A DNA stretch of 7,938 nucleotides, taken from the NCBI RefSeq assembly GCF_003334335.1, contig NZ_QOWQ01000070.1; one strand, 5' to 3'. Below, one piece after another: positions 5,398 through 5,674 of the stretch. The position numbers and the translations under genes were made by a program. Numbering within the stretch: the first letter of the stretch is position 1; the number at the start of each line of letters is the position of its first letter. Source of the stretch: Escherichia coli (GTDB lineage Bacteria > Pseudomonadota > Gammaproteobacteria > Enterobacterales > Enterobacteriaceae). The notes beneath the pieces are model-generated. The model was given only the letters and a program-made list of their open reading frames with translations. It was not told the origin of the DNA and made no database searches.

Positions 5398-5545
5398 TAA
5401 GCAGACTCATTGTGTTTAGGGACATTGTACTGGAAGAAAACATTTTAAACATCAGGCAAATAACCAAGTCACCAGCTAAATAATAAGTTAACAGACATGA
5501 GTCCCGGGATGAGATTCAACATTACCATTGCCCCATTTAAAGCAC

Positions 5546-5569
5546 AAAACCCGCTCATCAGCGGGTTTT
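5546..5569 (-). terminator. Bidirectional intrinsic terminator; candidate tR' on the minus strand
   Basis: CCCGCT-CATC-AGCGGG stem-loop (5550-5565). On the minus strand it is followed by UUUUGUGCUUU, and on the plus strand by TTTTCTACTTTTTCTT. It sits about 50 nt downstream of the predicted pR' start site and about 110 nt downstream of the Q stop codon. Confidence 0.65.
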
Positions 5570-5602
5570 CTACTTTTTCTTAACGTCGGGTATACAAAGC
5601 CC

Positions 5603-5643
5603 ATCGTTGAAAAAATTTTATCCATATTTTTTGAAAAATGCAA
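5603..5643 (-). promoter_or_regulatory. Predicted late promoter pR' with qut-like pause element
   Basis: On the minus strand: -35 TTGCAT (plus 5638-5643), a 17-nt spacer, -10 TAAAAT (plus 5615-5620), then TTTTTC and AACGATGGG (plus 5600-5608). The -10 followed by AACGATGGG is, as I recall it, the same arrangement as the lambda pR' sigma70 pause-inducing element. It lies immediately downstream of the Q gene. Confidence 0.55.
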
Positions 5644-5674
5644 ACATCATGTCGCCATCTTCAGCAAAAATCAT

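Follow-up and report, generated by a model that had tools for sequence, protein, structure and literature searches.

The Late Promoter Region of the Qin Cryptic Prophage as the Probable Source of the Small RNA ECS025

Genes and Features of the Locus

The DNA analyzed here, called the window throughout, is a 7,938-nucleotide stretch of Escherichia coli (contig NZ_QOWQ01000070.1) that belongs to the Qin cryptic prophage of E. coli K-12; in MG1655 it falls inside the feature annotated as "cryptic prophage Qin". Subtracting 1,636,814 from an NC_000913.3 position gives the position in the window. The 1161 bases around the module described below are up to 100% identical to E. coli chromosomes, and of 5426 complete E. 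coli genomes, 2472 contain sequence similar to the Q-pR' region, the similarity covering at least 80% of it in 1557.

On the minus strand the order is ydfU, quuQ/ydfT (6427-5675), the pR' module, cspB, essQ, ydfR, rrrQ, rzpQ/rzoQ, and cspI. Three genes are encoded on the plus strand, cspF and ynfS between the pR' module and cspB, and ynfU between cspB and essQ. The features that carry the argument are the following.

5675..6427, minus strand: quuQ (ydfT), encoding a 250-aa Q antiterminator of the Q-lambda family (open reading frame, annotation, Pfam, tblastn)
5638..5643, minus strand: -35 hexamer of pR', TTGCAT (sequence; invariant in 29 distinct variants and equal to the annotated -35 of phi80 pR')
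5621..5637, minus strand: 17-nt spacer, TTTTCAAAAAATATGGA, candidate Q-binding element (QBE; position of the annotated Q site of phi80)
5615..5620, minus strand: -10 hexamer of pR', TAAAAT (sequence; relatives have TAAAAT, TAAGAT, or TAGGAT)
5614-5609, minus strand: TTTTTC, between the -10 hexamer and AACGAT (sequence)
5600..5608, minus strand: start (5608) and predicted sigma70-dependent pause element, AACGAT (+1..+6, 5608-5603) with GGG (+7..+9, 5602-5600)
5582..5608, minus strand: predicted 5'-terminal stem-loop of the RNA, +1-4 with +24-27 and +6-9 with +19-22 (minimum-energy fold)
5546..5569, minus strand: tR', intrinsic terminator hairpin with its GC core at 5550-5565 and a U-run (folding; conserved position)
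5542..5608, minus strand: ECS025, the 67-nt short late transcript, Qin counterpart of lambda 6S RNA (Shinhara 2011; Adams 2021)
2216..3771, minus strand: lysis cassette, essQ, ydfR, rrrQ, and rzpQ/rzoQ (annotation and open reading frames)

An earlier note on this DNA, made from the letters, had proposed a promoter, a pause element, and a terminator on the minus strand right after the Q gene, and each of these elements is present where it was placed. The PF03589 Q gene lies immediately upstream of the promoter on the same strand, with its stop codon at 5675-5677 and the -35 hexamer starting 31 nt later. The lysis genes, which are the late genes of this region, are on the same strand as pR' and start 1.8 kb downstream. 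Between tR' and these genes are the opposite-strand cspF and ynfU, cspB on the same strand, and more terminator-like hairpins, e.g., at 4243-4224. Rfam matches to the cspA thermoregulator at 4509-4901 (minus strand, 158.8 bits) and 1614-1999 (minus strand, 112.8 bits) cover the leaders and coding sequences of cspB and cspI, respectively.

One further reading frame was considered at the promoter itself. A 51-aa ORF with a TTG start (5488-5643, minus strand) is entered as "hypothetical protein" in the records of the phages PhiR42_1 and HannyBb; it is probably spurious, as its start lies upstream of the RNA 5' end and the frame overlaps both the promoter and the RNA.

A Q Protein of the Lambda Family

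QuuQ has two Pfam matches to PF03589 with a DnaJ_CXXCXGXG match between them. In the family assignments of the Q-lambda structure paper (PMC9388147), PF03589 corresponds to Q-lambda, PF06530 to Q21, and PF06323 to Q82. By tblastn the protein aligns with lambda Q from end to end at 33% identity, and residues 1-120 and 160-250 align to the solved Q-lambda chains, the conserved N-terminal segment included. The roughly 40 residues between the aligned segments correspond to two additional CXXC motifs in the zinc arm. A phage-82-type identity for QuuQ was also considered and is ruled out by Pfam, by the assignments in PMC9388147, and by the tblastn match to lambda Q. Since QuuQ belongs to the Q-lambda family, a lambda-type promoter, pause element, and terminator are expected after quuQ.

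The zinc arm deserves a separate description. Residues ∼113-195 of QuuQ hold four CXXC motifs, three of which read CXXCXGXG as in DnaJ, at the place where lambda Q has a single zinc ribbon; this DnaJ-like pattern suggests two zinc sites. The Q protein of phage phi80, which has been studied experimentally and is 37% identical to QuuQ, has the same enlarged arm. In lambda, the zinc arm of Q touches the downstream part of the Q-binding site.

Promoter, Spacer, and Pause Element

The hexamers of pR' match the sigma70 consensus at 3/6 positions (-35, a weak match) and 5/6 positions (-10), so that the description "near-consensus" in the earlier note was an overstatement. Promoter-like hexamer pairs are also no commoner in the window than in shuffled sequence (14 found and 17 expected), and the promoter match alone is therefore not significant. 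The downstream element is of another kind. Six bases after the -10 hexamer, AACGATGGG occupies +1 to +9 and is identical to the pause element of lambda pR', where AACGAT, a -10-like sequence, and the discriminator-like GGG make up the defined pause element. The 11-mer TCAACGATGGG, which lambda pR' shares at an equal distance from its -10, has a single copy in the window and is absent from all 200 shuffles; the alignment with lambda that had been proposed for this region thus yields an identical segment with identical spacing. A published RNA 5' end, discussed below, lies 7 nt downstream of the -10 hexamer.

An additional -35-like element, TTGACT, reportedly sits beside the pause element in lambda, where it is said to serve sigma region 4. 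It is an auxiliary, not an essential, element. In Qin no such TTGACT is found one base upstream of the pause element; positions -7 to -2 read TTTTTT, with 3/6 matches, and nowhere else in the promoter do relatives vary as much as here.

The spacer, in which the candidate Q-binding element lies, is conserved better than its flanks, and its sequence is specific to the Q clade and differs from those of lambda and phi80. Spacer positions 2-8 read ATTGAAT in lambda, TTTGAAT in P22, TCGCGGA in phi80, TTCCCGA in the HK225 group, and TTTCAAA in Qin, while the TGG before the -10 hexamer is kept in most Q clades. Such variation by Q clade, like the conservation relative to the flanks, would be expected of a clade-specific Q-binding site. 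Another group, the Bp96115 Q clade (relatives L101-L180), has a different start region, AACAGTAGAAAT or AACACTATAAAT. Subclades with Q identities of 75% and 80% differ in the upstream half of the spacer, TTTACACT in the former and AATGACGA in the latter, as would be expected if Q and its binding site had evolved together.

The Terminator and the Short RNA

The tR' hairpin, AAAACCCGC-UGAUGA-GCGGGUUUU (in full AAAACCCGCUGAUGAGCGGGUUUU), spans +40..+63 and is followed by GUGCUUU. The predicted folding energy of the terminator segment, -22.1 kcal/mol (z = -8.0), exceeds chance.

A transcript that fits these elements has been catalogued. Small-RNA sequencing of K-12 identified ECS025 at 1640387-1640446 on the minus strand (older coordinates) in the Qin prophage, where it was described as an intergenic prophage sRNA of unknown function (Shinhara et al. 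2011). Its published sequence, AACGAUGGGCUUUGUAUACCCGACGUUAAGAAAAAGUAGAAAACCCGCUGAUGAGCGGGU, begins AACGAUGGGC, which places the 5' end at the first A of AACGAT, window position 5608, the homologue of lambda +1 (Shinhara et al. 2011). This 5' end comes from size-selected small-RNA sequencing, a method that is not specific for 5' triphosphates. In northern blots the RNA gives a band of ∼65 nt in total and in low-molecular-weight RNA, and its level rises 2-3 fold on cold shock and, according to the authors, is unchanged by SOS induction (Shinhara et al. 2011).

The 3' end is given by Term-seq. Adams et al. 2021 list an "orphan" 3' end at NC_000913.3 1642356 on the minus strand, which is window position 5542, or +67, and lies 8 nt after the GC stem of tR'. 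It is listed there in all three conditions (LB OD 0.4, LB OD 2.0, and M63), with high read counts of 103,591 and 55,368 in two entries. The 5' end of ECS025 and this 3' end together delimit an RNA of 67 nt (5608 to 5542), which is made even when the prophage is not induced. A 6S-like RNA starting near 5607 had been predicted from the letters, and the 5' end at 5608, the northern band, and the 3' end at 5542 bear this out; the predicted length of 50-60 nt was too short, as the mapped RNA has 67 nt and the hairpin starts only at +40. These data show, or strongly indicate, that the promoter fires constitutively and that transcription ends at the hairpin. Homology, ECS025, and Term-seq thus agree with the earlier proposal that pR', a lambda-like pause element, and a nearby tR' make a constitutive short RNA. 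Near NC_000913.3 1642422 on the minus strand, the equivalent of window position 5608, no start-site or pause entry was found in the supplements of the Cappable-seq, SMRT-Cappable-seq, and RNET-seq papers, whose tables are possibly incomplete.

A second "orphan" minus-strand 3' end appears in the same Term-seq tables, at window position 5374 (NC_000913.3 1642188; second entry, LB OD 2.0 by file position). It lies 168 nt past tR', after the hairpin CUGCU...AGCAG, and is antisense to ynfS. It may mark transcripts that pass tR' and end at another terminator, or a processed RNA.

The whole 67-nt RNA folds at -26.2 kcal/mol (z = -5.6). At the start of the late RNAs of Qin, lambda, P22, HK225, and two further relatives (L089 and L097), the first 4-5 nt (AACG) can pair with CGUU ∼20-27 nt downstream, and in YeP3 AAGGA pairs with UUCUU. 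Of 14 late RNAs of the AACGNT/AAGGAT type that were folded, 12 have such a predicted 5'-end stem, which in nine is complete from nt 1. In the consensus fold of 17 QuuQ-clade variants the 5' stem shows one-sided changes only, so that here a conserved structure and a conserved DNA motif are indistinguishable. Over the terminator and the 5' stem, two-sided changes occur in just 2 of 16 pairs in the QuuQ clade because the sequences are too closely related, and the stem is not alignable across clades because the loop lengths differ. A co-change from AACG:CGUU to AACA:UGUU in the Bp96115 clade was considered as well and is unsupported, as the predicted folds leave the 5' end unpaired.

Conservation of the Module

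We compared the locus with 80 IMG/VR contigs that encode a Q protein 94-100% identical to QuuQ. The motif after Q in the related loci is AACGATGGG in 78 and AATGATGGG in 5, and two are cut off without either; the module is present in 83 of 83 untruncated related viral contigs. The AATGATGGG loci (L021, L039, L041, L046, and L048; IMG/VR) have an element one step nearer the -10 consensus, with A2 and T6 kept.

Among 29 distinct variants, no column varies in the -35 hexamer, 1/9 in the pause element, 2/6 in the -10 hexamer, and 5/17 in the spacer. Variable columns amount to 17/31 in the intergenic DNA upstream, 5/6 at -6..-1, and 11/12 in the linker, and after the hairpin every column varies. 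The hairpin itself stays at the same place despite changes in its sequence (ACCCGC...GCGGGU, ACCUCGC...GCGGGGU, and ACUCGC...GCGGGU are among the examples), and the T-run is kept in nearly all variants, two having a broken T-run or stem. Similarity is lost sharply right after the terminator, a boundary that marks Q, pR', and tR' as one mobile module.

The U-run differs between alleles. That of K-12 (5541-5549, minus strand) reads UUUU GUGC UUU and is the shortest of all variants; the run is five U long in close relatives and six or seven in those further away. The alleles may not all terminate with equal efficiency.

These comparisons bear on a simpler reading of the hairpin, in which it is a plain bidirectional terminator between the convergent quuQ and cspF-ynfS, and the short RNA arises by processing from the 3' part of the quuQ mRNA and not as a primary transcript. 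The hairpin is flanked by an A-run and, on its other side, a T-run, a terminator scan of the window reported it on the plus strand only, and cspF and ynfS point towards it. Against this, the RNA begins exactly 7 nt past the -10 hexamer, at the homologue of lambda +1, and conservation is far higher in the promoter and pause elements than in the DNA around them. Moreover, the Term-seq tables hold no plus-strand 3' end between 1642360 and 1642399 in the three conditions (Adams et al. 2021), and the modules of phages that have no cspF show the same layout. We regard the bidirectional-terminator reading as very improbable.

The module is not confined to a cryptic prophage, since it also occurs in viable phages (SfV, 2H10, and Stx2k and Stx2c phages), and a terminator is annotated at the equivalent site in SfV, Ayreon, and HK225. 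The 221-bp region is 100% identical in the phage record PhiR42_1, as is the Q protein, and the quuQ reading frame is intact. The order Q-pR'-cspF-cspB is kept in 2H10, which has a 250-aa Q and the same cspF/cspB insertions, and in PhiR42_1, where it continues to the holin and lysis genes. These identities matter for the possibility that the locus is a decayed relic, in which promoter and terminator still work and QuuQ no longer antiterminates. Qin is cryptic, the K-12 U-run is shortened, and csp genes have been inserted downstream, all of which would suit such decay; however, identity to the phage copies of both the protein and the 221-bp region, and the presence of the same insertions in 2H10, make a dead relic distinctly unlikely.

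In phiSTEC1575-Stx2k (L181, 3772-8111) a Q protein 93% identical to QuuQ and a homologous module lie upstream of stx2k and the holin gene on the same strand, and Stx2c-converting phages likewise carry a QuuQ-type Q (93-94% identical) with the module. This type of Q probably controls Shiga toxin expression in those phages; in Stx2k and Stx2c phages the module precedes the Shiga toxin genes, so that variants of its promoter, spacer, and terminator are relevant to toxin expression.

One record departs from the pattern. In HannyBb (L004, PP925841.1, 1-1720) the promoter, pause element, and terminator are 93% identical to those of Qin, and tblastn found no QuuQ homologue in the 1.5 kb upstream of the module; the record contains many tiny ORFs. 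Assembly errors or a replaced Q gene are possible explanations.

Mechanism and Significance

Taken together, the evidence makes it highly likely that the site is the late promoter region of the Qin prophage, comprising pR', a Q-utilization site, and tR', and that it works as follows. RNA polymerase with sigma70 starts at 5608 and, without Q, stops at the hairpin, freeing the stable 67-nt ECS025. By homology with lambda, region 2 of sigma70 is expected to re-bind the non-template AACGAT at +1..+6, reinforced by GGG, and to hold the polymerase in a pause near +16. QuuQ, bound to the promoter spacer, would then load onto the paused complex, again as in lambda. The Q-modified polymerase would read through tR' and later terminators, past the csp insertions, and into essQ, ydfR, rrrQ, and rzpQ/rzoQ; it would also be expected to pass the hairpins downstream of tR'. 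The pause, the binding of Q to the spacer, and the Q-dependent read-through are thus inferred from the known lambda system. Qin is defective in K-12 and its Q is presumably silent, which accounts for the fact that only the short RNA is seen.

The reach of this control is narrower than first proposed. The earlier note had placed everything downstream on the minus strand under Q, and for the lysis cassette, whose genes are presumed to depend on Q as late genes, this would hold. It does not hold for cspB and cspI, which have their own cspA-type thermoregulatory leaders and therefore do not depend on Q, and late transcription would cross cspF, ynfS, and ynfU in antisense, as these three are encoded on the opposite strand.

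A different weight can be given to the RNA itself. ECS025 could be mainly an independent, trans-acting sRNA gene of the StxS/Pas kind, with its position next to Q a matter of history and antitermination no longer relevant in K-12. The RNA is abundant and discrete at ∼65 nt, it has a 5' stem-loop and a terminator hairpin, and its level is 2-3 fold higher on cold shock; in addition, Stx phages make short RNAs from pR' that function as sRNAs, and PasD sRNAs are found near PF03589 Q genes. On the other hand, ECS025 has no known target, seed, or chaperone binding, and a reduced level in an hfq mutant was reported for ECS007 and ECS009 only, not for ECS025 (Shinhara et al. 2011). An Rfam search of the whole window at a permissive threshold gave no family for ECS025, the only matches being the cspA thermoregulators and a sub-threshold Trp leader. 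The parts of the locus that are most conserved are the promoter and pause elements, which act at the level of DNA, whereas the single-stranded linker of the RNA is among the least conserved. We therefore weigh an independent sRNA gene as unlikely, with the proviso that it is compatible with the late-promoter explanation and not exclusive of it.

ECS025, a cold-induced RNA, is surrounded by three prophage csp genes. CspA-family RNA chaperones are known antiterminators. ECS025 might accordingly be more than a by-product, either as a regulatory RNA itself or because CspA-family chaperones melt tR' and give read-through on cold shock, an idea that we hold to be decidedly improbable. If chaperone melting did occur, cold shock would lead to Q-independent read-through into cspB and the lysis genes.

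The late-promoter system described here is textbook, ECS025 had been catalogued before, and modules of related type carry annotation in phi80, HK225, SfV, and Ayreon. Only the connection drawn explicitly between ECS025, the orphan Term-seq end, and pR' of Qin seems to be new. No paper linking ECS025 to the Qin late promoter was found in the literature searched, and a text search for "quuQ" returned nothing relevant. In the text searched, neither Shinhara 2011 nor Adams 2021 connects Q antitermination with the RNA; the word stem "antitermin" is absent from Shinhara et al. 2011, and the link to pR' and Q was therefore not made there. With this link, an orphan sRNA and an "orphan" Term-seq 3' end are both traced to one short terminated RNA made from Qin pR', which gives each of them a function. 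Whether the RNAs of late promoters have a function of their own is a question that has stood since lambda 6S RNA, and K-12 is a safe strain for studying it as well as QuuQ specificity.

Comparison with Known Systems

Among the closest known systems is that of lambda, which has a Q of the same Pfam family with full-length homology and makes a constitutive short terminated RNA. Lambda pR' reads TTGACT-17-TAAATT-TGACTC-AACGATGGG; it shares with Qin the spacing from -10 to +1, the nine bases at +1..+9, and 11 of 17 spacer positions. It differs in its -35 hexamer (TTGACT vs TTGCAT), in the QBE within the spacer (ATTGAAT vs TTTCAAA), in the bases just upstream of +1 (TTGACT vs TTTTTT in Qin), and in the position of the terminator, ∼+190 in lambda and +67 in Qin. 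QuuQ, unlike lambda Q, has ∼40 extra residues and two more CXXC motifs in its zinc arm.

The Q of phi80 (gp17; record JX871397) is long and has four CXXC motifs like QuuQ. The annotated phi80 pR' shares with Qin the -35 hexamer TTGCAT and a 17-nt spacer, which in phi80 contains the annotated Q site, and its terminator, at +46..+74, is likewise close to the promoter; unlike Qin it has the pause element AACGCT, the Q site TCGCGGA, and the -10 hexamer TAGATT, and a second downstream terminator is annotated. The late promoters of P22 gene 23 and HK225 resemble that of Qin in having AACGATGG at +1 and a terminator close by (∼+60 in P22 and +29..+55 in HK225), but their spacer sequences are different, and P22 Q is of lambda size (207 aa). 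More generally, P22, HK225, a Stx2a phage, a Proteus phage, and others have (T)AACGATGG at the start and a terminator ending at ∼+55 to +70. A terminator close to the promoter is thus the norm for this Q family, and the compactness named in the earlier note is no special feature; among the phages examined the long form is found only in lambda and SF6, with the +190 terminator of lambda an outlier. The work of Wells 2016 on NusA deals with where the pause lies rather than with how far away the terminator is.

As an RNA, ECS025 can be set beside StxS of Stx phage, which is likewise a short transcript of the DNA from the late promoter to tR'; StxS arises by processing of a 258-nt precursor and is bound by Hfq, whereas ECS025 is not known to share either feature. 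The genes of PasD sRNAs are located no more than 10 kb from PF03589 Q genes, and K-12 has no Pas genes.
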